A stretch of 64,000 bases of DNA, taken from positions 384,096 to 448,095 of the forward strand of contig CAVOSR010000001.1 of the NCBI GenBank assembly GCA_963698925.1. The letters run 5' to 3'. The notes under the pieces were generated by a model. It was not told where the DNA came from. It saw nothing but the letters and a program-made list of their open reading frames with translations, and did no database searches. Of this stretch, positions 20,750-54,896 are shown piece by piece; within the stretch, counting starts at the first letter, position 1, and each line of letters opens with the position of its first letter. The position numbers and the translations under genes are program-made. Origin of the DNA: an uncultured Actinomycetes bacterium. GTDB taxonomy: Bacteria > Actinomycetota > Thermoleophilia > Gaiellales > Gaiellaceae.

Positions 20750-22004
20750 GTGTCGCTGCAAGAACGGAGCTCGACCGAGCGGGTCCAGGAAGGCCGCGAG
20801 CGCTACGTCGCGCGTGGCGTCTCGACGCCCCCGCTCGTCGTCGCCCGCGCCGAGGGCGCCCGCGTCTGGGACGCCGAGGGCCGCGAGTACGTCGACTTCG
20901 CCGGCGGGCTCGGCTGCGCCAACCTCGGCCACTCCCTGCCGGCGGTCGCGAGGCGATCCACGCGCAGGTCGACGAGTACCTCCACCAGTGCTTCATGGTC
21001 GGGATGTACGAGCCGTACGTCGAGGTCTGCCGCCGCCTCGCCGAGCTCTCGCCCTGCCGCGGCGAGCGGAACCAGAAGTCCATCCTGCTGAACACCGGCG
21101 CGGAGGCGGTCGAGAACGCCGTCAAGATCGCGCGGGTCGCGACGGGCCGGCCCGGCGGTCGTCGTCTTCGACAACGCCTTCCACGGCCGCACGCTCCTCT
21201 CGATGACGATGACCTCGAAGGTCGTCCCGTACAAGCAGGGCTTCGGCCCGTTCGCGCCCGAGGTCTACCGCACGCCCGCGCCGTACCCGTTCCGCGGCGT
21301 CAGCGAGGACGACGCGATCGCCGCGCTGAAGCACCTCTTCAAGGGCGACGTCGACCCGCAGTCGGTCGCGTGCGCGGTGCTCGAGCCGGTGCAGGGCGAG
21401 GGCGGCTTCATCCCGATGACGCCCGACTTCCCGAAGCGCCTCCAGGAGCTGCTCGACGAGCACGGCATCCTCTACGTCGACGACGAGGTGCAGTCGGGCT
21501 GCGGCCGCACCGGCCCGGTCTGGGCGATCGAGCACTGGGGCGTCGAGCCCGACCTGCTCGTCTCCGGCAAGACGCTCGGCGGCGGCCTGCCGCTCGCGGC
21601 GGTCACCGGCCGCGCCGAGATGATGGACGCCGTTCCCGCCGGCGGGCTCGGCGGCACGTTCGGCGGCAACCCGGTCTCGTGCGCGGCGGCGATCGCGACG
21701 CTCGACGCGCTGCGCCGACGCCCGGCCGCGCGCGGAGGCGATCGGCGAGCGCCTGCGCGCCCGGCTCGAGGCGATGGCGCCGCCCGGCTCCGAGGTGCGC
21801 GGGCTCGGCCCGATGCTCGCGCTCGAGCTGCCGGAGCAGAGCGGCGACGAGACGACGCGCATCACGCGCGAAGCGCGCGAGCAGGGGCTCCTGCTCCTCT
21901 CGTGCGGGATCTACGGGAACGTGATCCGCATCCTCGTGCCGTTCAGCGTCACGGACGAGGAGCTCGAGCGCGGCCTCGACATCCTCGAGAGCTGCCTTGG
22001 CTGA
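20750..22004 (+). pseudogene. gabT: 4-aminobutyrate--2-oxoglutarate transaminase, three frameshifts
   Basis: The class-III aminotransferase blocks are [72 protein letters not shown] and GGTFGGNP. Frame changes are near 20945, 21155 and 21715. Confidence 0.85.
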
Positions 22005-27370: not shown

Positions 27371-28274
27371 TCAGAGGGCGCGCAGCTCGGCGAGCTGGCG
27401 CGCCGACGGCTCCCAGTCGCCAGCAGCGGCGTTCGCGCGCACCTGCTCGGGCTTCGTGGCGCCCGCGATCACCGAGGCGACCGGCGAGACCGCAGCAAGA
27501 CCGCCGATCGCGACCTCGAGCAGCGAGACGCCGTGCGCCTCGGCCCAGGCGCGGTAGCGCTCGACACGGTCGAGGTCGGCCTCGTCGATCTCGCTGCCGT
27601 GCAGCCGCGTGCCCTTCGGCGGGCGGGCGGTCGCGCGAGACCTTGCCGGTGAGGAGCCCACTCGCGAGCGGGAAGTACGGGATGAAGCCGAGACCGAGCG
27701 CGCTCGCACGTCGGGAGCAGCTCCGCCTCGGCGTCGCGGGCGAGCCACGAGTACTCGCTCTGCTCCGAGACGTACGGCACCTCGAAGTCCTTGGCGATCA
27801 GCGCCGCCTGCTCGAGCATGTCCGGCTCGTAGTTCGAGGTGCCGACGGCGCGGATCTTGCCCTCGTCGACGAGCTCCTTCGAGCGCGCCGAACGTCTCCT
27901 CGAGCGGGGTCTGCTTGTCCTCCTGGTGGTGCTGGTAGAGGTCGACGTGGTCGGTCTGGAGGCGGCTGAGCGACGCGTCGAGGGCGCTGCGGACGAACCC
28001 GCGCGCACCGTGCTGCTGATCGTCCGTCGAGCATCGCGCCCCACTTCGTCGCGAGCACGACCTGGTCGCGGCGGCCCAGCAGCACCTCGCCGAGGATCGT
28101 CTCGCTGCCGCCCCGGTTGCCGTAGACGTCGGCCGTGTCGAAGAAGGTCACTCCCACCTCGAGCGCGGCGTCCACGACCGCCTTCGTCCCGGCCGCGTCG
28201 ACCCGCCGGCCGAAGTTGTTGCACCCGAGCCCCACGACGGAGACCTCGAGCGGCCCGAGCTGGCGCGTCCGCAT
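27371..28274 (-). pseudogene. Aldo/keto reductase, at least four frameshifts
   Basis: The blocks MRTRQLGPLEVSVVGLGCNNFG..FFDTADVYG, HVDLYQHH, GKIRAVGTSNY and VIAGATKPEQV are spread over three frames. Confidence 0.75.
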
Positions 28275-28442: not shown

Positions 28443-29412
28443 TCAGGCGCGCCAGGTGGCGTCGAGCACGCGCAGCCAGTTGCCGTGGGTGATCTTCGCC
28501 ACGGCGTCCTCGTCATAGCCGGCGTCCCGCAACGCGTCGACGAGCTTCGGCAGGCCCGCGGCGCCGCCGAGCGCGTCCGGGACGACGGCGCCGTCGAAGT
28601 CCGAGCCGAACGCCACGTGGTCGATCCCCATCCGCTCGGCGTAGTGATCGATGTGCCGGACGATCTCCGTCAGCGGTGTGTCGGGCACCTCGAGACCCGT
28701 CCTCGCGCAGGAACGTGACCGCGAAGTTGACGCCCACGACCCCGCCGGAGTCGCGGATCGCGTCGAGCTGCTCGTCCGTCAGGTTGCGGGACGCCGGACA
28801 GAGCGCGTGGGCGTTCGAGTGCGTCGCGACGAGCGGCGCGTCCGAGAGCCGGGCGACGTCCCAGAACCCCGCCCAGTTGAGGTGCGAGAGGTCGACGAGG
28901 ATCCCGAGCCGGTTGCACGCTGCAACCAGCTCGCGGCCGGCGCTCGTCAGCCCGCCGCCCACATCGGACGACGACGGGAAGCGGAACGGCACACCCTCGG
29001 CGAAGTCGTTCGACCGCGACCACGTCGGCCCGATCGAGCGCAGACCCCGCTCGTACCACGACTCGAGGTTCGAGAGGTCGCGCGCGATCGGCTCGGCCCC
29101 CTCCATGTGGACGATCGCGGTCACCACCCCCTCGCGAAAGTCGCGCGCCGAGGTCGCCCGCCCGACCGGCAGCGCGCACAACGCCGCGAACAGCTCCTCG
29201 GCGATGCGCGCCGCCTCGTCCTGCGGGATCGGGTCGGGCAGCGGGATCGCGTACGGGATCTCCGTCGGGTCGGGGAAGCGCGGCGACGGCACGTAGAGGG
29301 CGAAGAAGCCGCCCGCGAACCCCGCCTTCCGCGCAGCCTCCAGATCCATGTGCATCGTCGGCTCGCCGCGCCACCGGTGCAGCACGAGGTCGTTGTGGCC
29401 GTCGACGATCAC
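28443..29412 (-). pseudogene. Membrane dipeptidase (peptidase M19), one frameshift
   Basis: ORF 28513..29412 reads MIVDGHNDLV..LVDLSHL..VATHSNA. It continues in ORF 28443..28688 (IVRHIDHYAERMGIDHVAFGSDFDG). Frameshift near 28695. Confidence 0.8.
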
Positions 29413-29453
29413 TGCCGCATCCTACGGACGACTGTGGCAGGCTCCCGCGCACG

Positions 29454-38980: not shown

Positions 38981-40214
38981 ATGTCCACCGCCTCCGCAAC
39001 CGACCTCGGAGCCAACTCGGAGGTCGGAACGCTGCGGACAGTGATCGTGCATCGGCCCGATCTCGCCCACGAGCGGCTGTCGCCGACGAACTCCCACGAA
39101 TTGCTGTTCGACGACGTGATCTGGGTGCGGAGGGCCCGCCAGGAGCACGACGCGTTCGTCGACCTGATGAGGGAGCGAGGCGTCGAGGTGCTGCTCTTCC
39201 ACGACCTGCTCACGGCGACGCTCGAGCAGCCCGACGCGCGGGAATGGGTGCTCTCGCGGCGGCTGCGTCCGGAGGAGGTGACCGTGATGTTCGCGGCCGA
39301 TCTGACCGAGTGGATGTCCGGAATGCCCGCAGACGAATTGGCGACGCGCCTCACCGGCGGCGTGACGGTGCAGGAGCTTCCCGAGTCCGTCGCGTCGGTG
39401 GTGAAGGGCGCGATGCGGCCGACGGACTTCGTGATCGCCCCGCTCCCGAACCAGCTCTTCACGCGCGACACGAGCGCCTGGATCTACGGCGGCGTCTCGA
39501 TCAACCAGATGTACTGGCCCGCCCGGCAGCACGAGACGCTGAACGTCGAGGCGGTCTACCGCTTTCATCCGCGCTTTCGCGATGCGGGCTTCCAGATCTG
39601 GTACGGCGGCTTCGACCACGACTGGGGCAGCGCGTCGATCGAGGGCGGCGACGTCATGCCGGTCGGAGACCGCGTCGTCCTCGTCGGGCAAGGGTGAGCG
39701 GACGACGGCGCGCGCCGTCAGCATCCTCGCCCAGAACCTCTTCGCCGCGGACGCGGCGCGGCTCGTGATCGGCGCGCAGATGCCCAAGGGGCGCGCCGCC
39801 ATGCACCTCGACACGGTGTTCACGTTCTGCGACCGAAACGTCGTGACGATCTACGAGCCGGTCGTGTCGGAGATCCTCCCCATCCTCTACCGCCCCGACG
39901 GGAACGGCGGTGTGAAGGCTGAGATCTCGAAGCGGTCGTTCCTCGACGAGGTCAAGGACACGTTGGGCATCGAGGACCTGAAGGTCGTCACGACGGCCGG
40001 GAACGAGTTCGAGGCCGAACGGACGCAGTGGGACGACGGCAACAACGTCGTCGCGCTCTCACCAGGCGTCGTCGTCGCATACGAGCGGAACGAGTCAACC
40101 AACGCGAAGCTGTCCAAGGCGGGCATCGAGGTGCTGGCGATCGCCGGCCAGGAGCTCGGCCGCGGTCGCGGCGGCGGGCACTGCATGACCTGCCCCGTCA
40201 CCCGGGACGCATGA
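38981..40214 (+). pseudogene. arcA: Arginine deiminase, one frameshift
   Basis: Met71 of ORF 38771..39697 (GAAAGGAG RBS) gives GANSEVGTLRTVIVHRPD..FTRDTSAWIYGG. It continues in ORF 39582..40214 (MHLDTVFTF.., [13 protein letters not shown] with the catalytic Cys). Frameshift near 39690. Confidence 0.9.
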
Positions 40215-40229
40215 CAAAGGAGTGATGAG

Positions 40230-41239
40230 ATGAGCACCGTTATCGACCTGCACGGCAAGCACCTGCTCAGGCTTGCCGACTTCAGCCCGGAGGAGATCGC
40301 CTATCTGATCGACCTCGCGGCCGAGTTGAAGGCTGCGAAGCGCGAGGGCCGCGAGGAACAGAAGCTCGTCGGCAAGGAGATCGTCTTGATCTTCGAAAAG
40401 GACTCGACGCGGACGCGCTGCGCGTTCGAGGTCGCCGCGTTCGACCAAGGCGCGCACGTCACGTTCCTCGGGCCGTCCGGATCGCACATGGGGCACAAGG
40501 AGACAGTCAAGGACACGGCGCGCGTGCTCGGACGGATGTACGACGCGATCGAGTTCCGTGGCTTCGACCAGACCGCCGCGGAAGAGCTCGCGCAGTGGTC
40601 CGGCGTGCCGGTCTACAACGGGTTGACCGACGAATGGCACCCGACGCAGATCCTCGCCGACTTCCTGACGTTCAAGGAGCACATCCCGAAGCCGCTGAAC
40701 GAGGTCGTCTTCTGCTACCTCGGCGACGCGCGCTTCAACATGGCGGACTCGTACCTGATCGGCGGCGCGAAGCTGGGAATGGACGTCCGGATCGCGAGCC
40801 CGAAGTCGCTCTGGCCCAGCCGACGAGATCGTCGAGCTCGCCCGCTCGATCGCGGCCGAGACCGGCGCGACGATCACGATCACCGATGACGTCGCAGAGG
40901 CCGTTCGCGGCGCCGACGCGCTGCTGACCGACGTCTGGGTCTCGATGGGCGAGGCCGACGAGGTCTGGGCAGCAGCGGATCGAGCTGCTCAAGCCGTACC
41001 AGATCAACGCGAAGGCACTCGAGCTGACGGGCAACCCCGACGTGAAGTTCATGCACTGCCTGCCGGCGTTCCACAACACCGACACGCAGGTCGGCAAGGA
41101 GATCTTCGAGAAGTTCGGGATGGAGGCGCTCGAGGTGACCGAGGACGTGTTCGAGTCGCCGGCTTCGCTCGTCTTCGACGAGGCCGAGAACCGGCTGCAC
41201 ACGATCAAGGCGGTCATGGTCGCCACGCTCGGGAGCTGA
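40230..41239 (+). pseudogene. arcB: Ornithine carbamoyltransferase (catabolic context), two frameshifts
   Basis: The motifs are [21 protein letters not shown] and, in a later frame, FMHCLPAFH. Frame changes are near 40812 and 40970. Confidence 0.9.
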
Positions 41240-41243
41240 CCTG

Positions 41244-42182
41244 ATGCGCGTCGTCGTCGCCCTCGGAGGAAACGCGCTCCTCCAGCGCGGGCAGCCGCTC
41301 ACCGCGGAGAACCAGCGTGCGAATGCGCAGACCGCGTGTCGTGCCCTCGCACCGCTCGCACTCGAGCACGAGCTCGTGGTCTCGCACGGCAACGGCCCGC
41401 AGGTCGGGCTGCTCGCGCTGCAAGGATCGGCCTACACCGCCGTCGAGCCGTACCCGATGGACGTCCTCGGCGCGCAGACCGAGGGGATGATCGGCTACAT
41501 CCTCCAGCAGGAGCTCGGCAACGAGCTGCCGATCGACGTGCGGCTCGCGTCACTGCTGACGCTCGTCGAGGTCGACGGCGCCGATCCGGCGTTCGCGAAC
41601 CCGACGAAGCCGATCGGGCCGATCTACGCCAAGGACGAGGCCGATGCGCTCGCCGCCGAGAAGAGCTGGACGTTCAAGCCGGACGGCGACAGCTTCCGCC
41701 GCGTCGTTCCCTCCCCGATGCCGCAGCGCATCTTCGGGCTCGAGCCGCTCGAGTGGCTGCTCGACAAAGGGTGCGTCGTCATCTGCGCCGGTGGCGGCGG
41801 CATCCCGGTGATGTACGTCGACGAGCCCGTCCCGGCAGGGCGGCGGCTCGTCGGTGTCGAAGCCGTGATCGACAAGGACTTCGCGACCGCGCTGCTCGCC
41901 GTCGATCTCAAAGCCGACGCGGTGATCATCGCGACGGACGTCGACGCCGTCTACTCCGGCTGGGGGACACCCGACCAGCAGGCGATCCGCCGCGCTTCGC
42001 CGAGCCAGCTCGCCGAGCTGGACTTCGCCGAAGGCTCGATGGGACCAAAGGTGCGCGCCGCCTGCATGTTCGCCGAACGCACGGGCGGCATTGCAGCGAT
42101 CGGCTCGATCAACGACACTGCAGCCCTGCTCCGAGGCGAGGCCGGAACGACGGTCGCTCTCGACACGGCCGAGATCAGGTAA
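41244..42182 (+). CDS. arcC: Carbamate kinase
   Basis: Intact 312-aa ORF reading [29 protein letters not shown]. Confidence 0.9.
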
Positions 42183-46581: not shown

Positions 46582-46586
46582 TGGTC

Positions 46587-46631
46587 GTCACAGTTCGGTA
46601 GCGGTGGCAGCCACCCACACGGAACTGCAAC
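46587..46631. repeat. Single copy of the GGTGGCAGCCACC-containing unit (see 49923..50060)
   Basis: GTCACAGTTCGGTAGCGGTGGCAGCCACCCACACGGAACTGCAACG, with the core palindrome at 46603..46615. It lies between the MFS stop and the yfcC start. Confidence 0.75.
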
Positions 46632-46719
46632 GCGCTCTCCCCGCACCGCGGCATCCCACCCTTGCCGTCGAGGCGTCGCGCGACGAGAATCGCTGCACCC
46701 AAGCCCGAGGAGGCGTTCG

Positions 46720-48222
46720 ATGAGCGAAGGCGAAGGCGCCGTCGCCTCAGCCGACGAGCCGGCAGGCAAGAGCCGCTTCACGCTCCCGTCTGCGTACACC
46801 ATCCTGTTCGCGCTGATCGTGCTCGCCGCGATCGCGACCTGGGTGATCCCGGCCGGCGTCTACAACCTGAACGCCGCGGGCGAGCCGGTTCCGGGGACGT
46901 ACCACGAGGTGGCGTCGCAACCGGCGCACATCCTGCGCGACTCGCTGACGGCGCCGATCAACGGCCTCTACGGGATCGAGGACGCGAAGGGGAACATCAA
47001 CTACTACAACTCGGGAACGCTGTTCGGCGCGATCGACATCGCGCTGTTCATCCTCGTGATCGGCGGCTTCCTCGGCGTGACGATGAAGACGGGGGCGATC
47101 GAGGCGGGCATCGGCAGTCTCGTGCAGCGGATGCAGGGCCAAGGAGCGGCTGATGATCCCGGTGCTGATGAGCGTCTTCGCCCTGGGAGGCACGACGTTC
47201 GGGATGGCCGAGGAGAGTCTCGCCTTCTACGCGCTCGTGATCACGGTGATGATCGCCGCCGGGTACGACGCGCTGACGGGTGCGGCGATCGTGCTGCTCG
47301 GCTGCGGCATCGGCGTGCTCGGCTCGACGGTCAACCCGTTCGCGACCGGGATCGCGTCCGGGATCGCGGGCATCTCGATCAGCGACGGCATCATCGGACG
47401 GCTGGTGATCCTGATCGCCGGCCTGGTCGATCGGCATCTTCTTCGTCCTCCGCTACGCCGACCGTGTGAAGAAGGATCCCTCGAAGTCGGTCGTCTACGA
47501 CCTGAAGGCCGAGAACGAGGCGCGCTTCCGGGCGGCGACCGACGACGGCGAGGTCACGCTCACCGGCAAGCAAAAGATGGTCCTGGCCGTCTTCGCGCTC
47601 GCGTTCGTCGTGATGATCTACGGCGTCGTTCCGTGGGAGGACCTCGGGATCCCGTTCCCGACCTGGTGGTGGTGGTTCCCCGAGATGACCGCCTCCTTCC
47701 TGCTCTTCGCGATCATCATCGGGCTGATCGGCCGGATGGGCGAAGGCGCGCTGACGGCCAGCTTCGTCGACGGCGCGCGGGATCTCCTCGGGGTCGCGCT
47801 GATCATCGGCATCGCCCGCGGCATCACCGTGATCATGAACAACGGCCAGATCACCGACACGGTCCTGCACTGGATCGAGAAGGCGCTCGGCGACACGGGC
47901 GACGTCACGTTCCTGATCTTGATGTTCCTGCTCTTCCTGCCTCTGTCGTTCGTGATCCCCTCGACCTCGGGGCTGGCGACGCTGTCGATGCCGATCATGG
48001 CTCCGCTGGCGGGCTTCATCGGCGTGTCGACCGCGCTCGTCGTGACCGCCTACCAGAGCGCCTCAGGCGTCATGAACCTCGTCGTTCCGACCTCTGCGGT
48101 CGTGATGGGCGGCCTCGCGATCGCCCGCGTCCCGTACGGCACCTACCTTCGCTGGGTCTGGCCGCTGCTCGCGCTGCTCAGCGCCCTGTCGGTGATCGTG
48201 CTCGCGCATCGGAGCAGTCCTG
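46720..48222 (+). pseudogene. YfcC family (DcuC-like) putative basic amino acid/peptide transporter, about three frameshifts
   Basis: The blocks FTLPSAYTILFALIVLAAI.., MIPVLMSVFALGGTTFGMAEES.., and KKDPSKS..FLLFLPLSFVIPSTSGLATLSMPIMAPLA lie in three frames. Changes are near 47145 and 47425, and probably near 48200 (which gives ..VLAIGAVL and a stop at 48220). Confidence 0.75.
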
Positions 48223-48258
48223 TGAGCTCCGTGCGTCGAGCCTGGAAAGGAGGATCAG

Positions 48259-48408
48259 ATGCGGCGCGCCGTTGAATGGCTGCTGATCGTCGCGGCCGCG
48301 CTGCTCGTCGTCGGTCTGATCGCCTACGCGCGCGGCCCGAAGCATCACCGCGGCGACGAGGTCGGCACGCACGGCACGAAGATCGTCGTCGTGCACATCG
48401 TCCCCTGA
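48259..48408 (+). CDS. Small single-TM protein (49 aa), hypothetical
   Basis: The ATG is preceded by GGAAAGGAGG. The product is MRRAVEWLLIVAAALLVVGLIAYARGPKHHRGDEVGTHGTKIVVVHIVP. It is below the size cut-off of the ORF track and lies between yfcC and pepD. Confidence 0.4.
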   Translation: MRRAVEWLLIVAAALLVVGLIAYARGPKHHRGDEVGTHGTKIVVVHIVP

Positions 48409-49922: not shown

Positions 49923-50060
49923 AGGCCGCAGCCACCATACGAACGTGCAACCACGCCGTGACGGTCCCGTAGCGGTGGCAGCCACCCAGACGGAAACGCA
50001 ACACGGCCGTGACTGTTCCGTACTGGTGGCAGCCACCCAGACGGAAGCGGCAACGAGCGT
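49923..50060. repeat. Three tandem ~51-nt units (first one degenerate) with core palindrome GGTGGCAGCCACC flanked by TTCCGT/ACGGAA arms
   Basis: Cores are at 49974..49986 and 50025..50037. A degenerate copy (GGCCGCAGCCACCATACGAACGTGCAAC) starts near 49923. The orientation is the same as the copy at 46587..46631. Confidence 0.8.
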
Positions 50061-50111
50061 GTTCCCTGCACAGCGGCAGCGACCCGGCTATCAGCCGTTC
50101 CGTCGTTTCAA

Positions 50112-50143
50112 CGACTGAAAGGCCCTCGCGGGCCTTTCAGTCG
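50112..50143 (+). terminator. Strong hairpin CGACTGAAAGGCCC-TCGC-GGGCCTTTCAGTCG
   Basis: It has a 14-bp stem and lies about 200 nt after the pepD stop. The stem core GAAAGGCCC/GGGCCTTTC is the same as in the hairpin after tRNA-Gly. Confidence 0.55.
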
Positions 50144-50272
50144 GTCAAACACAACCTCGGAAGGAGGTCGGGCGCCAACGTACCTGGTGCGTGACCGGCG
50201 CCAGGTGGCCAAGCTGGGTCAGAACCGTGCTACCCGGCTGACGAGGGCGTTGGAGGTAGCCTCGGCGGCAGC

Positions 50273-51199
50273 GTGCGCGCGGTTGTGGTTCGTAAGCCGG
50301 GGACGGCCGAGTGTCTCGAGTCGGCGGAGCTCCCACGACCGACCGCGAGGGCAGGGTGCGTCGTGGCCCGCGTCGGAGCGGCCGGAGTGAATCCGATCGA
50401 TGCGACCAACCGGGCAGACCCGAGTTGGGCCGGGATCGAGCCACCGTACGTCGTCGGCTATGAGTTCGCGGGCTGGATCGAGGAGGTCGGCTCCGGGGTT
50501 GCGCGGTTCGCCCGCGGGGATGCGGTTTGGGGCGTGTGCCCGGTCCGCGGCACCCGCTGGGGGACGTACGCGGACTACGTCGAGCTCGAGGAGAGTTGGG
50601 TCGGCCCGCGCCCCACGACGCTCGACGTGATCGAGGCGGCTGCGATTCCCCTGCCCGGCTCGACTGCGCTCCAGGTGCTCGATCGTCTCGCGTTGCAGTC
50701 GGGCGAGTCGGTGCTCGTGCACGGCGCGAGCGGGAGTGTGGGGCGCTTGTTCGTGCAGCTCGCTCGGATGCGAGGCATCCGAGTCGCTGCATCCTCGAGC
50801 CGCGAGCGGCATCAGCTTCTGCGTGAGCTTGGGGTCGACAACGTGATCGACCGTGAGCAGGGCGACGTCATCGGTGCTGCGGTGCGCGTTGTCGGCGGCC
50901 CGCTCGACGCGGTGGCGGATTTTGCGGGCCACGGGCTGCTGGGCCCGAGCCTCGTCGGCATCCGGGCGGGTGGGTCGGCGGCGTCGATCGTCGAGCTCAG
51001 AGGCGATTTCGAGGAGGCGATCGACCGCAACATCCGGCTTCACGGCGTCCTCGTCCGCCCGGAGCGGGCAACGCTCGACTGCCTGTGCGAGGCCGTGGAG
51101 CGTGGCGTGCTGCGGCCGGCGGTCGACGCCGTCGTCGGACTCGATGCGATTGTTCGGACGCATCGCGAACTCGACACCGCGGTCGAGCGAGGAAGGTGA
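50273..51199 (+). CDS. Zinc-type alcohol dehydrogenase / quinone oxidoreductase family (MDR) protein
   Basis: Intact 308-aa ORF reading MRAVVV..GVNPID..GYEFAG..VLVHGASGSVG. Confidence 0.8.
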   Translation: MRAVVVRKPGTAECLESAELPRPTARAGCVVARVGAAGVNPIDATNRADPSWAGIEPPYVVGYEFAGWIEEVGSGVARFARGDAVWGVCPVRGTRWGTYADYVELEESWVGPRPTTLDVIEAAAIPLPGSTALQVLDRLALQSGESVLVHGASGSVGRLFVQLARMRGIRVAASSSRERHQLLRELGVDNVIDREQGDVIGAAVRVVGGPLDAVADFAGHGLLGPSLVGIRAGGSAASIVELRGDFEEAIDRNIRLHGVLVRPERATLDCLCEAVERGVLRPAVDAVVGLDAIVRTHRELDTAVERGR

Positions 51200-51368: not shown

Positions 51369-51409
51369 GCCGGTGAGGGTGGGACGAACGGCGCCTCACC
51401 CTCACCGGC
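51369..51409 (-). terminator. Hairpin GCCGGTGAGGGTG-N15-CACCCTCACCGGC, 8 nt downstream of the spike-like gene
   Basis: A 13-bp perfect stem read directly. It lies between convergent genes. Confidence 0.5.
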
Positions 51410-51416
51410 CAACCCG

Positions 51417-52337
51417 TCAAGGCCCTGCGCAGACTGTCGCGGAGCCCGTGACGATCACGCCGGCCGCGTTGACCGAGTCTCCGCTTCGTGCGACCGGCCG
51501 GCAGGCAGAGCCGCCGTTGAGCCCCACCAGGCTGCCCCGGAGGTCGACGGCGCCGCCCGCGCTGACGGAGAGCGGGCCGGTGATGTCGTCGTTGCGAGCG
51601 CCGCCGATCGCAGTCGTCTCATTGCGGTCGACCGTCTGCGTACGGTCGTGCTTGACGTGGACGATCTCGTCGTTGTCAACCACGGTTGCACGGTCGTGGC
51701 CGACGAAGTGAGTCTCGTTGCGGAACACTTCCACGTCCGCGTCTCGCTGGACGTTCAGCAGATAGTCGTTCGCCGCGAACCTCAGCCGTCCCCGCTGGAG
51801 ATGTTGATGCCGCCCGCTGCAGGCAGACTGACCGAGGAGTCCGGGCCGGTGATCTGGACACCGTTGTCGCTCACCGATAGCGCGAACCTGCCGTCAGGGC
51901 TGGTCGAACGTCCCACTGAAGTCCTTCCCAGCCTGACCGTTCGTCCCGTTCTGCCCGCCGCACACGTACGCCGTCGAGCCGTTCGCGTCGGTTACCGCGG
52001 CGCCGCCGGCGGGACAGTGCGAATCGCCCACCGCGAGCTGCGCGACCGTGGGGCTCGTGCCGTTCGTACCCGCCGTACCCTGCGACCCGGCGTCGCCTTT
52101 CTGACCCTGCTGGTTCCACTCGATCTGTGTCTCGAATTTCGTGCAGTGGCCAAGCAGCGAGCTCGTCGCGAGCGAGGGGTCGATCAGCCGGATCGTCCCG
52201 ACGTCGTTCAGCCTGCACGCCGTGTAGACCCCGCCGCCACTCGGAATCGTCGCGTAGGCGATCCCACCGGCAAGGGCAAACAGCACCACGATGGTCACCG
52301 ACACGATCGCTGCGCGCCGTGATGCCAATAGGTTCAT
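51417..52337 (-). pseudogene. Membrane-anchored collagen-like protein ending in a VgrG/gp5-type octad-repeat beta-helix and a PAAR-like tip; a ~110-nt internal segment is out of frame
   Basis: The ATG at 52337 (GGGAGG RBS) gives MNLLASRRAAIVSVTIVVLFALAGGIAYA (TM) and Gly-X-Y runs GQKGDAGSQGTAGTNG and GQNGTNGQAGKD. ORF 51894..52355 and ORF 51417..51734 share the same frame. The stretch between them reads sensibly only in another frame (PDGRFALSVSDNGVQITGPDSSVSLPAAGGINISSGDG). There are then eight-residue repeats DVEVFRNE/THFVGHDR/ATVVDNDE/IVHVKHDR/TQTVDRNE/TTAIGGAR.., and the end is ACRPVARSGDSVNAAGVIVTGSATVCAGP. Confidence 0.6.
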
Positions 52338-52584: not shown

Positions 52585-52658
52585 AGCGGATGATGAGACT
52601 CGAACTCACGACCTTCTCCATGGCAAGGAGACGCTCTAGCCAACTGAGCTACATCCGC
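52585..52658 (-). tRNA. tRNA-Gly (GCC)
   Basis: The reverse complement is GCGGATGTAGCTCAGTTGGCTAGAGCGTCTCCTTGCCATGGAGAAGGTCGTGAGTTCGAGTCTCATCATCCGCT. The acceptor is GCGGATG/CATCCGC, the anticodon stem is TCTCC/GGAGA and the loop is TTGCCAT. There is no encoded CCA. Confidence 0.9.
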
Positions 52659-53058: not shown

Positions 53059-53462
53059 TCTGCCGCCGCGTCCAGCGCGTCGTTGACAAGCTTGTCGGCG
53101 AGCTCGTTGTCCGCGCGCTTCACATGGCGATACTCGACGTTGCCGAGCTCGCGCGCAAGGCGTCCCGCCTCCACCGACAGCTCCCGCAGCGCCTCGTTCT
53201 TGACGCGATACTCGCCGCGCATCTGCTTCACCATCAGCTCGGAGTCGGAGACGACCTCGACGGCGGGTAGTTGCAGCTCGACCGCCTTGCGCAGGCCCGC
53301 GATCAGCCCGCTGTACTCGGCGACGTTGTTCGTCGCGATCCCGATCGGCTCACCCTCGGAGGCGAGCACGGTTCCGTCCTCGTCCTCGAGCACGAAGCCG
53401 TACGCGGCCGGGCCGGGATTGCCACGCGCGCCGCCGTCGGTGAAGAGGCGCGCGCCTATGAC
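53055..53462 (-). CDS. Ribonuclease H (RNase HI-like)
   Basis: The frame of ORF 53055..53534 reads [53 protein letters not shown] (DEDD residues). The only listed start (53534) overlaps the upstream gene by 78 nt. The real start is probably near 53460 but no canonical codon is seen there. Confidence 0.75.
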
Positions 53463-54896
53463 GCAGACGGGTCCGCGTTGTCGATCTGCGCGCGCTGCAG
53501 CTTGCCGCTGTAGTCGACGTAGACCGACTTCCACTCGGTGAAGACGTCGAGCGCAGCCTGGCCCGCCTCGCGGTGGCCGTTGCCCGTCTGCTTCATGCCG
53601 CCGAACGGCAGGTGCACCTCGGCGCCGGTCGTGCCGGCGTTGATGTAGGTGATCCCGGTCTGAAGGTCGCGCATCGCCTTGAACGCCTTGTTGACGTCGC
53701 GGTGAAGATCGACGACGAGAGGCCGTACTTGACGCTGTTCGCGGCGCGCACGGCGTCCTCGAACGAGTCGACGGGGATCAGCGCGGTCGTCGGGCCGAAG
53801 ATCTCCTCCTGCGCGATCCGCATCTGCGGATCGACGTCGGCGAAGACGGTCGGGCGGTAGTAGAAGCCGTGTCCCTCGACGCGCTCGCCGCCGGTCAGCA
53901 GCTTGGCGCCCTCCCCCTGGCCGATCTCGGTGTAGGAGTGGATCTTCTCGACGGCGGTCTCGTTGATCACGGGGCCGATCTCGCGTGTCGTCCTCCCACG
54001 GCGAGCCGATGCGCATCTGCTCGGCGCGCGCGACGAGCTTCTGCTGCAGCGCCTCGTAGACGCCGCGCTGCACGATCACGCGCGACGCGGCCGTGCAGCG
54101 CTGGCCCGCGGTGCCGAACGCCGACCAGATGATCCCGTCGACCGCGAGGTCGACGTCGGCGTCGTCCATCACGATGATCGCGTTCTTGCCGCCGAGCTCG
54201 AGATGGACGTGCTTCAGCTCGTCGGCGGCGTTCTTCGTCACGAGCACGCCGGTCTCGCGCGAGCCCGTGAACGTGATCACGGGCACGTCGGGATGCTTGA
54301 CGAGCGCGTCGCCCGCCTCCTCGCCGAAGCCGTGCACGATCTGCACGACGCCCTCGGGCAGGCCGGCCTCCTGCAGCAGCTCGACGAAGCGCTGCGCGAG
54401 CTTCGGCGTGTCCTCCGCCGGCTTCAGCACGACGGTGTTGCCGCAGACGAGCGCCGGGCAGAGCTTCCACGCGGGAATCGCGATCGGGAAGTTCCACGGC
54501 GTGATCGCGCCGACGACGCCGACCGGCATGCGCACGCTCATCATGAACTTGTCGCGGAGCTCCGACGGCGTCGTCTGGCCGAAGAGCCGCCGGCCCTCGC
54601 CGCCCATGTAGTAGCTCATGTCGATCGCTTCCTGGACGTCGCCGCCGGCCTCGGCCTTGACCTTGCCCATCTCGCGCGTCATCAGGTCGGACAGCTCGGC
54701 CTTGTGCTGCTCGAGCACCTGGGCGAAGCGGAAGAGGATGTTGCCGCGCTCGGGCGCCGGCACGAGGCGCCAGCTCTCCCACGTCGTCACGGGCGGTGTC
54801 GACCGCGCGGGCGACGTCGTCGGCGCCGGAGCGCGGGAAGGACTCGATCACCTCGCCGGTCGAGGGATTCAACGATTCGAACGTCGCGGTCGCCAT
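53456..54896 (-). pseudogene. NAD(P)-dependent aldehyde dehydrogenase, three frameshifts
   Basis: The blocks are MATATFESLNPSTGEVI.., ITPWNFPIAIP, LELGGKNA, GQRCTAASR, EEIFGPT and [11 protein letters not shown]. Frame changes are near 54790, 53985 and 53705. Confidence 0.85.

Follow-up and report, generated by a model that had tools for sequence, protein, structure and literature searches.

A lone gene of an uncultured Gaiellaceae bacterium joins a gp5/VgrG-type beta-helix and a single PAAR-type unit to a predicted secreted, collagen-like N-terminal half

To our knowledge, the beta-helix of the gp5/VgrG type and the PAAR cap have hardly been seen outside the membrane-attacking end of contractile injection machines. 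What, then, do both modules do in a lone gene that stands among housekeeping genes? The gene in question lies on the minus strand (52337..51417, with a TGA stop codon at 51419-51417) of a 64,000-nt stretch of contig CAVOSR010000001.1, from an uncultured Gaiellaceae bacterium, which we refer to as the window. It codes for a protein of ~306 amino acids (aa) once two 1-nt indels are repaired. An earlier reading made from the bare sequence (here called the sequence-only reading) had taken the product for a trimeric, needle-like surface or cell-puncturing protein held by a membrane anchor and a collagen-like stalk. With somewhat better than even confidence, we propose that it is a secreted homotrimeric fibre with a self-capped beta-helix head and not a contractile injection spike. 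Our confidence is higher for the architecture of the protein than for this proposal as a whole, and lower for its role.

The head (aa 140-278, 51504..51920, minus strand) comprises a small beta-sheet lead-in (FSGTFTSPDG...), nine octads and a last strand, GSLVGLN. The octads (DVEVFRNE...DLRGSLVG, aa 201-272, 51522-51737, minus strand) are present as listed in the sequence-only reading. Their fourth positions read V, V, V, V, V, I, I, A, G, their eighth positions alternate between E and R, and the similarity of the sequence to itself at lags of 8 and 16 residues exceeds that of shuffles (p = 0.02 and 0.01, respectively). The protein matches the Pfam family PF22178 (Gp5_trimer_C) over aa 194-263 with 49.8 bits (gathering cut-off 30.9) and PHROG 430 ('baseplate hub subunit and tail lysozyme') at 3e-6, and the family profile, searched against the PDB, matches the helices of several VgrGs, of T4 gp5 and of a spike from a Klebsiella phage (1.8e-8 to 7e-6). 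An AlphaFold2 (AF2) model built on an alignment of 57 sequences reached a predicted local distance difference test (pLDDT) score of 80.5 overall and >90 for aa 150-260. Its top Foldseek matches in the PDB are all central spikes: those of KP1 and of phage T4 (gp5, probability 1.0, TM score 0.41 over about 170 columns), the Anabaena, Algoriphagus, Streptomyces (9gtr) and PVC spikes of extracellular contractile injection systems (eCIS), VgrG1 and the R2 pyocin spike. A structure search of BFVD gave a like picture. These searches with the repaired product, by profile and by structure, had been proposed as a check of the sequence-only reading, and what they return are gp5/VgrG spikes and, as described below, PAAR proteins. 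Judged by its sequence, the assignment of the head to the octad-repeat family of the T4 gp5/VgrG C-terminal beta-helix (PF22178/PF06715) holds. Helix length differs among family members by whole repeats, and the solved relatives retrieved by the PDB profile search are all trimeric.

The helix of the window protein ends in a GS.V.LN strand, as VgrG C-termini do. Throughout the family, the last strand (...RGSLVGLN) is followed by four residues and then by a single PAAR-type unit of 28 aa (aa 279-306, 51420..51503, minus strand; C-R-P-V-A-R-S-G-D...I-V-T-G-S-A-T-V-C-A-G-P). Two VgrGs found with the C-terminal 105 aa of the window protein (P0209 and P0123) have the same final strand, GSK[IV][SL]LN, at their ends (...KGSKISLN and ...KGSKVLNN), and beta-helix paralogues without the PAAR-type unit stop at ...GSVVNIN. 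The protein terminates in GGSACRPVARSGDSVNAAGVIVTGSATVCAGP, and the unit itself reads CRPVARSGDSVNAAGVIVTGSATVCAGP, flanked by the invariant pair Cys279/Cys303. It comes directly after the helix end, and the flat end of the VgrG helix is the seat of PAAR proteins (PMC12407873).

The relationship of this unit to PAAR can be detected from its sequence. A profile made from the last 45 residues of 29 members and searched against the whole PDB matched PAAR proteins only: 4jiw_D (c1882) at 4.8e-9, 4jiv_D (VCA0105) at 3.6e-7, SalCis10 at 7e-4, the N-terminus of Tse5 at 4.5e-3 and Tre23 at 0.32. All the repeats of the PAAR proteins matched can be aligned, one after the other, with the single unit. It shares with the spike-tip proteins of this kind (VCA0105, 4JIV; c1882, 4JIW; T4 gp5.4; SalCis10; PF05488) the pattern P-[AV]-A-R-x-G-D ... 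I-x-x-G-S-x-x-V-x-[IA]-G. The family consensus is C-x-P-A-A-R-V-G-D...I-x-T-G-S-P-T-V-C-I-G; the window protein has the variant P-V-A-R, and many members have a literal PAAR. On their own, 13 of the 29 members match PF05488, and the window protein does not. An artificial threefold tandem of the unit passes the PF05488 cut-off of 27 (31.9 bits for the window protein, 51-58.5 for others), which is a consistency check and not evidence.

There are, however, clear differences from PAAR proteins. A PAAR domain has three such units in one monomer, which make a cone of pseudo-three-fold symmetry, whereas the window protein has one per chain, covalently fused to the helix, so that the cap would be a homotrimer. 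The metal site of PAAR is made of three His and one Cys and links the tips of the hairpins (PMC12407873). In contrast, the unit described here can be aligned gap-free with the third repeat of PAAR, which is short, and the hairpin segment holds neither His nor Cys in any of the 57 members, the only Cys residues being the invariant pair that flanks the unit. Considering that the hairpin is short and lacks these residues, the cap would be blunt and metal-free. The PAAR-like tip of the sequence-only reading is therefore homologous to PAAR but amounts to one repeat and not to a PAAR domain. We suggest, from sequence register, that each chain contributes one unit and that the three together close the helix end, with true three-fold symmetry where the monomeric PAAR has only a pseudo-three-fold one. 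Within a PAAR monomer, a peptide link joins the end of each unit (V-x-I-x-G) to the beginning of the following one (x-P-A-A-R). Speculatively, Cys303 (V-C-I-G) of one chain might lie near Cys279 (C-x-P-A-A-R) of the next, and an inter-chain disulfide could replace the peptide link.

Outside its head, the protein differs from gp5 and VgrG. It is about 306 aa long (versus 575-800 aa), and its N-terminal 190 aa are made up of the signal peptide, the Cys domains and the Gly-X-Y runs. Searches with Pfam, PHROG and NCBIfam at E-values up to 10 found in it neither a hub like gp27 nor an OB-fold or a lysozyme domain. Unlike the genes of gp5 and VgrG, this one does not belong to a tail, type VI secretion system (T6SS) or eCIS cluster, either in the window or at the loci of its homologues. 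The spikes of P2 gpV, phi92 gp138 and R-pyocins are the closest precedent for a fused tip, with spike and tip in one polypeptide and a tip to which three identical chains contribute (PMC12407873); among the weak Foldseek matches mentioned above is the spike of the R2 pyocin. Nevertheless, the apex of those spikes is an HxH motif enclosing an Fe ion and is not PAAR-like in sequence, and such spikes dock on the tube with an N-terminal OB-fold and belong to contractile tails; the window protein has none of these. Without a hub or OB domain, without contractile genes in the window or at 25 loci and with a cap that lacks a metal site, the cell-puncturing role once suggested for the product finds no support.

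The N-terminal half is organized in modules. It starts with a signal peptide (aa 1-29, 52251..52337, minus strand) with RR, a hydrophobic core and an AYA|T cleavage motif (AYA|TIP). The RR pair is R7-R8 and the hydrophobic stretch spans 9-25; A27 and A29 are invariant in the 57 homologues, and the AF2 model shows a helix at 4-23 followed by a low-confidence, disordered linker at 24-29. A positive n-region, a hydrophobic h-region and small residues at -3 and -1 are what is expected of a Sec signal peptide. Since the invariant AxA (A27, A29) fits the -3/-1 rule, a predicted cleaved Sec signal peptide is more likely than the membrane anchor of the sequence-only reading. Export by Tat was considered and rejected: the RR pair is missing from some family proteins (P0047, P0070 and P0072) and the hydrophobic core is long, which makes Sec more likely.

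Next comes a strongly conserved domain (aa 30-77, 52107..52250, minus strand; TIPxGGGVYTAC...HCT..ETQIxWNQ) with the invariant pair Cys41/Cys65. It has no match in Pfam, and it occurs in many paralogues with other C-terminal heads. A first Gly-X-Y run of six triplets (aa 78-95, 52053..52106, minus strand) leads to a Cys knob (aa 96-127, 51957..52052, minus strand; SPTVAQL..GDSHCPAGGAA.TDA..STAYVC) with the invariant pair Cys108/Cys126, and a second run of four triplets (aa 128-139, 51921..51956, minus strand) joins the knob to the head. The equivalent of the knob in the paralogue at locus L040 matches Pfam DUF7151. The hydrophobic N-terminus, the Cys module and the two Gly-X-Y runs had all been recognized from the sequence, and the runs sit where paralogues hold genuine Pfam Collagen domains (7 of the 10 paralogues tested pass the cut-off at the equivalent position, with 28.9-65.2 bits). 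The six invariant Cys of the 57 homologues form three pairs, one per module, and in paralogues the pairs are gained or lost together with their modules, which argues for one disulfide in each.

The protein belongs to a conserved family of at least 264 proteins. A first protein search gave 264 matches at E <= 1e-3, mostly intact proteins of 250-370 aa with PF22178 and PF06715, and the named ones among them are proteins of Gaiellaceae metagenome-assembled genomes (MAGs). Relatives were located at 114 loci (one genome per GTDB species); all of the 79 loci kept come from MAGs and none from an isolate. The carriers are mainly Gaiellaceae and Solirubrobacteraceae/Solirubrobacterales, with some Ilumatobacteraceae, one Nocardioidaceae and many 'uncultured Actinomycetes'. 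When the C-terminal 105 aa were searched against 1.84 billion cluster representatives, 145 proteins matched at E <= 1e-3. The matches that run through the PAAR-type unit to their own C-terminus are all family members of 230-365 aa or fragments of them, while those of 690-800 aa are VgrGs, aligned over the helix only. The sequence-only reading knew no such architecture from phage, T6SS or eCIS spikes, and we found no description of it or of the family in the literature searched, where only general accounts of PAAR and gpV turned up.

At many loci the match is confined to aa 1-93. The ORFs there have in common the signal peptide, the AYATIPD Cys domain and a collagen region, and continue into unrelated C-terminal heads. 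Such paralogues, which form a large superfamily in MAGs of Gaiellaceae, Solirubrobacterales and related groups, were seen at L036, L038, L040, L050-L052, L060, L064, L082 and others, and their heads are unannotated. The length of the collagen region is very variable among them, reaching about 30 Gly-X-Y triplets, and several paralogues can coexist in a genome (for instance L008, L041, L050 and L051 in SMAG_U14744). Since one and the same leader with its collagen module is combined with heads that are unrelated to each other, the beta-helix can be seen as one interchangeable head of a fibre, in a paralogous family of predicted secreted, collagen-like proteins from actinobacteria of the Thermoleophilia type.

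Parts of the N-terminal half also turned up in two IMG/VR viral contigs. In one of them (L085, 7278-8991), a membrane-anchored collagen-like protein ends in a knob, SPTV.QL..GDSHCP.GGAAITDA...YVC, that is 67% identical, and its gene is directly upstream of an ORF (open reading frame) that by eye resembles a GH25-type lysin. In the other (L086, 7950-8471), the AYATIP N-domain is found on a protein of 173 aa.

The surroundings of the gene also set it apart from spike genes. Pfam annotation of roughly the 40 largest coding-like ORFs of the window returned metabolism and transport only, and no contractile or phage genes. Likewise, no tail, T6SS, eCIS or phage genes occur within 10 kb of the homologues at L001-L005 (precomputed Pfam), where dnaG, paaABCD and peptidases are found instead. 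An all-against-all comparison of flanking ORFs at 25 loci found no conserved neighbour beyond close relatives. One recurrent downstream ORF (L019, L021 and L026) was considered as a partner and dismissed, as by eye it looks like the housekeeping gene for inositol-phosphate synthase. The gene is thus a solitary one with housekeeping neighbours, and in the loci examined genes of contractile systems are missing from its vicinity, as had been noted from the sequence for the window.

From these observations we propose the following picture. The product would be exported via Sec and its signal peptide cut after AYA. Outside the membrane it would form a homotrimeric fibre, with the N-terminal Cys-pair domain, the collagen-like segment, the Cys-pair knob, the second collagen-like segment and the distal head in this order. 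The head, a triple-stranded beta-helix of the gp5/VgrG type, would drive trimerization as in every solved relative, and three single PAAR-type units, one per chain, would close its flat end. Each of the three modules would hold its own invariant Cys pair, presumably as a disulfide, and the short Gly-X-Y stretches would be kept as a triple helix between the trimeric modules. The beta-helix and its cap would in this way make a very stable trimerization and end-capping head for an extracellular surface, adhesive or structural fibre. That the head is not a propelled spike is suggested by the alternative heads found on the shared leader and collagen module and by the lack of a hub domain and of a machine.

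In the secreted proteins BclA of Bacillus and Scl1/Scl2 of Streptococcus, a globular trimerizing domain adjoins a Gly-X-Y region. The predicted layout of the family described here resembles theirs, and here as there several paralogues differ in collagen length and heads. It differs in that its heads have no sequence relation to the C1q-like domain of BclA or the V domains of Scl, in that no LPXTG or exosporium-anchoring motif is present, in its short collagen part (just 6 + 4 triplets) and in its gp5-type head.

Several points weigh against the fibre that we propose. The Pfam Collagen model scores only 13.4 bits on the window protein, below the cut-off of 27.2, as the Gly-X-Y runs are short. 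The N-terminus might be an uncleaved signal anchor. No C-terminal cell-wall anchor signal (LPXTG) was found in the protein, which leaves a surface fibre and a released protein as alternatives. The three-fold cap and the disulfide pattern are read from sequence register, and the role as a fibre is a proposal. The Foldseek E-values are weak (7e-3 to 0.2), as is to be expected when a single chain of an intertwined trimer is modelled and searched alone. Our view of the genome is the 64-kb window, and a contractile locus could be situated elsewhere. Finally, an exact-pattern search of metagenome contigs across the first indel, aimed at the same species, gave no match.

The last point bears on whether the gene is intact. 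As given, the sequence breaks it into three ORF pieces (52355/52337-51894, 51916-51782 and 51734-51417) in the frame order A/B/A, the outer two in one frame and the middle one shifted. The best start codon is the ATG at 52337; a Shine-Dalgarno sequence, GGGAGG (52348-52343, minus strand, read directly from the sequence), stands 5 nt ahead of it, and the repaired protein, used as a tblastn query, spans 52337-51420. The two breaks were placed by DNA alignment with an intact homologue gene, that of P0002 at L087. The first is an extra G (GTTCgACC) at 51905 (minus strand), where the window has GTTCGACC and the homologue GTTC-ACG, and where P0001 and P0002 read FTSPDGRF. The second is a base missing in or beside a GGGG run at 51793-51790 (minus strand). 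The positions estimated in the sequence-only reading (near 51897 and 51784) were close to these. The stretch between them (51794..51904, minus strand, aa 145-181) is out of frame and was recovered from the frame-2 translation and the switch in the phase of GC content at third codon positions (GC3) as TSPDGRFALSVSDNGVQITGPDSSVSLPAAGGINISS. Across the shifted region, frame B reads SPDGRFALSVSDNGVQITGPDSSVSLPAAGGINISS and frame A gives Arg-rich nonsense. In the GC3 frame plot, the codon-position signal moves from A to B and back to A, switching at about 51900 and 51780, so the middle piece is coding sequence out of register and not a spacer. Readthrough or selenocysteine at the in-frame TGA (51896-51894) was rejected, because it is frame B and not A that matches the homologues and carries the GC3 signal.

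Intact relatives were found in a search of 5.8 billion proteins: P0001 (312 aa) is 85% identical over 100% of the query and P0002 (297 aa) 69% identical. Comparable splits or truncations affect seven housekeeping genes of the window. The Pfam matches of an aldehyde dehydrogenase (53456-54896; Pfam positions 42-307 and 311-409), a peptidase M19 (28446-29421; 6-243 and 243-318), arginine deiminase (38687-40211; 1-202 and 202-377) and DcuC (46720-48275; 1-112, a gap, and 221-456) are divided between frames, and the ORFs of a class-III aminotransferase (Aminotran_3), an OTCase and an M4 peptidase (at 21624-22001, 40928-41236 and 32460-33539) are truncated pieces that cover only part of their Pfam profiles. 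The density of indels in the window is roughly one per few kb. Because of the similar damage to these seven genes and the existence of intact homologues, both breaks are probably sequencing or assembly noise and not the death of the gene, and it fits with this that long-read MAG projects supply many of the homologue loci. Since the window is full of 1-nt indels, frame breaks in it should not be read as pseudogenes.

Downstream, a GC-rich, terminator-like hairpin (51369-51409, minus strand; inverted repeat I20, RNA fold -43.8 kcal/mol, z = -2.45) begins 8 nt past the stop codon. A consensus scan found neither a sigma-70 promoter nor a T-tract terminator, and there is no paralogue of the gene within the window. 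Probably, this is a monocistronic, intact chromosomal gene that the assembly renders with two 1-nt errors.

The immediate neighbours are a zinc-type dehydrogenase (50273-51199, plus strand) on one side and, on the other, a tRNA-Gly(gcc) (52585-52658, minus strand; ARAGORN, Rfam 69 bits) that is followed by its own hairpin and is located 247 nt upstream of the start codon. Further neighbours are a SnoaL-like protein, an RNase H, an aldehyde dehydrogenase, a GNAT protein, an M20 peptidase and DcuC. A tRNA or tmRNA lies within 1 kb of the gene in the window (Gly), in the group of L002, L008 and L009 (Asn), at L013 (tmRNA) and at L023 (Asp). This makes about 4 of about 20 independent contexts, where roughly 3% would be expected (binomial p about 0.003, a rough estimate). 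Neither an att-like direct repeat of the 3' end of the tRNA-Gly nor an integrase was found in the window. The GC3 of the gene is 0.845, and that of 13 other genes is 0.82-0.98, with two neighbours lower, so that it is at the low end and not an outlier. The A/T-ending codons claimed in the sequence-only reading as a sign of foreign origin are thus within the local range; the tRNA next to the gene is real, but as a sign of horizontal transfer it is only suggestive. Overall, the evidence for horizontal acquisition is thin.

At one homologue locus (L001, 11071-20053), an insertion of roughly 9 kb with IS110 and DDE transposases, HTH_17 and AAA_25 separates the gene from the tRNA-Asn and dnaG, and it is missing from the syntenic L002 (10828-10893). 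As this island sits between the tRNA and the gene, the tRNA-Asn site appears to be an active spot of integration, of which the spike-like gene is the flank and not the cargo.

Four other explanations have to be weighed against the secreted fibre. If both frameshifts were real, the locus would be a recently inactivated, decaying pseudogene. The two breaks and the in-frame TGA speak for this, as do the first indel, which is not in a homopolymer, and the missing same-species sequence with which it might be compared. Still, we think it unlikely, since the damage to seven unrelated housekeeping genes fits assembly noise better than selective decay and the compensating indels touch only 37 codons. 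Moreover, conservation is higher in the shifted stretch than elsewhere in the protein (34 of the 36 residues compared with P0001, aa 146-181, are identical, versus 85% for the whole protein), outer frame A is open except for the one TGA, with no other stops or deletions, and codon periodicity in GC3 is kept in all three pieces. The model of the sequence-only reading, a membrane-tethered trimeric needle on a collagen-like stalk that punctures or probes the envelopes of other cells with no machine, can draw on the true homology of the head to those parts of T6SS and phage spikes that attack membranes, on the N-terminal hydrophobic helix of about 20 residues and on the N-terminus being the only candidate for a tether in a protein without a C-terminal wall-anchor signal. 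We regard it as rather unlikely, because cleavage is suggested by the invariant AxA past the hydrophobic core, none of the 25 loci encodes a neighbouring partner that could generate force, the fit of the cap unit to the short third PAAR repeat without hairpin His or Cys predicts a blunt, metal-free end, and paralogues exchange the head for unrelated domains.

The two remaining explanations place the protein on a particle. It might be an orphan spike that loads onto an eCIS or a phage-tail-like particle whose genes lie elsewhere in the genome. In organisms with T6SS, orphan genes for VgrG and PAAR proteins are common, actinobacterial eCIS exist (Streptomyces 9gtr and SalCis10 are among our matches), and just 64 kb of this genome are in view. 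On the other hand, known contractile particles assemble in the cytoplasm, whereas the Sec signal peptide, like the six invariant Cys, is in keeping with folding outside it. There is also no gp27-like or OB-fold domain for docking on a tube (search to E 10), the length is about 306 aa versus 580-800 aa, and the N-terminal half is a collagen-type module common to paralogues that are not spikes, all of which makes an orphan spike very improbable. Alternatively, the protein could derive from a phage, as a tail-fibre or receptor-binding type of protein left at the tRNA site in a prophage remnant or as a moron, with a function in adsorption or superinfection exclusion. Collagen-like repeats and triple-stranded beta-helices are typical of phage fibres, such as the hyaluronidases of streptococcal prophages, and both the excess of tRNA and tmRNA neighbours and the two viral contigs with the N-domain or the Cys knob would agree with such an origin. 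However, a Sec signal peptide is unusual in virion proteins, neither the window nor the surroundings of the homologues contain an integrase, an att repeat or any further phage gene, and a tblastn search of 50,697 GenBank phage records gave no match. With the mobile island of L001 lying between tRNA and gene and a GC3 within the host range, a phage origin seems quite improbable to us.

The secreted fibre remains the reading that we prefer. Both spike modules recur, fused, in a conserved family of lone genes whose products are Cys-rich, collagen-like and, by prediction, exported via Sec. A PAAR cap with one repeat per chain and the export of a spike head via Sec would both be new variants. If the trimer forms as proposed, this would be the first PAAR-type cap made from three identical chains, which bears on the evolution of the pseudo-three-fold PAAR; a bolder version, a free-standing, Sec-exported VgrG-like needle with a genuine three-fold PAAR tip and possibly inter-chain disulfides that, with no contractile machine, acts on the envelopes of other cells or as a piercing adhesin in actinobacteria of the Thermoleophilia type, its unit being an ancestor of PAAR from before triplication or a product of fission, has in our view a slim chance of being correct. 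If the proposed trimer forms, it would also show that a spike head has been reused as a module of an extracellular fibre, and the family would give a first way into the surface biology of Gaiellales and Solirubrobacterales, which are abundant in soil and represented almost solely by MAGs.

Some other features of the window deserve mention. Between 37174 and 42179 there is an arginine deiminase pathway cluster, with an amino-acid permease (37174-38571, minus strand), the arginine deiminase (38687-40211), the OTCase (ending at about 41236) and an amino-acid kinase of the carbamate-kinase type (41139-42179). ARAGORN called a tRNA-Asn (39999-40078) inside the arginine deiminase coding sequence and a 94-nt tRNA-Ser (27461-27554); both are below the Rfam gathering score for tRNA and are likely false positives or indel-damaged genes.

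A family of 49-nt intergenic repeats has copies at 46586-46634, 49957-50005 and 50008-50056 (71-84% identical to the reference copy), and the repeat contains the palindrome GGTGGCAGCCACC. One copy follows a gene of the major facilitator superfamily and the tandem pair follows the M20 peptidase gene; the repeat may be a terminator or an element of the repetitive extragenic palindromic kind. Upstream of the dehydrogenase gene, at 50105-50150, what looks like the hairpin of a terminator is formed by a nearly perfect inverted repeat of 21 nt (90% complementary, 4-nt loop). Near the end of the window, an ORF on the minus strand (63038-63565) matches the OLD-like TOPRIM domain PF20469 with 34 bits and may be part of a defence nuclease of the OLD/Gabija type.

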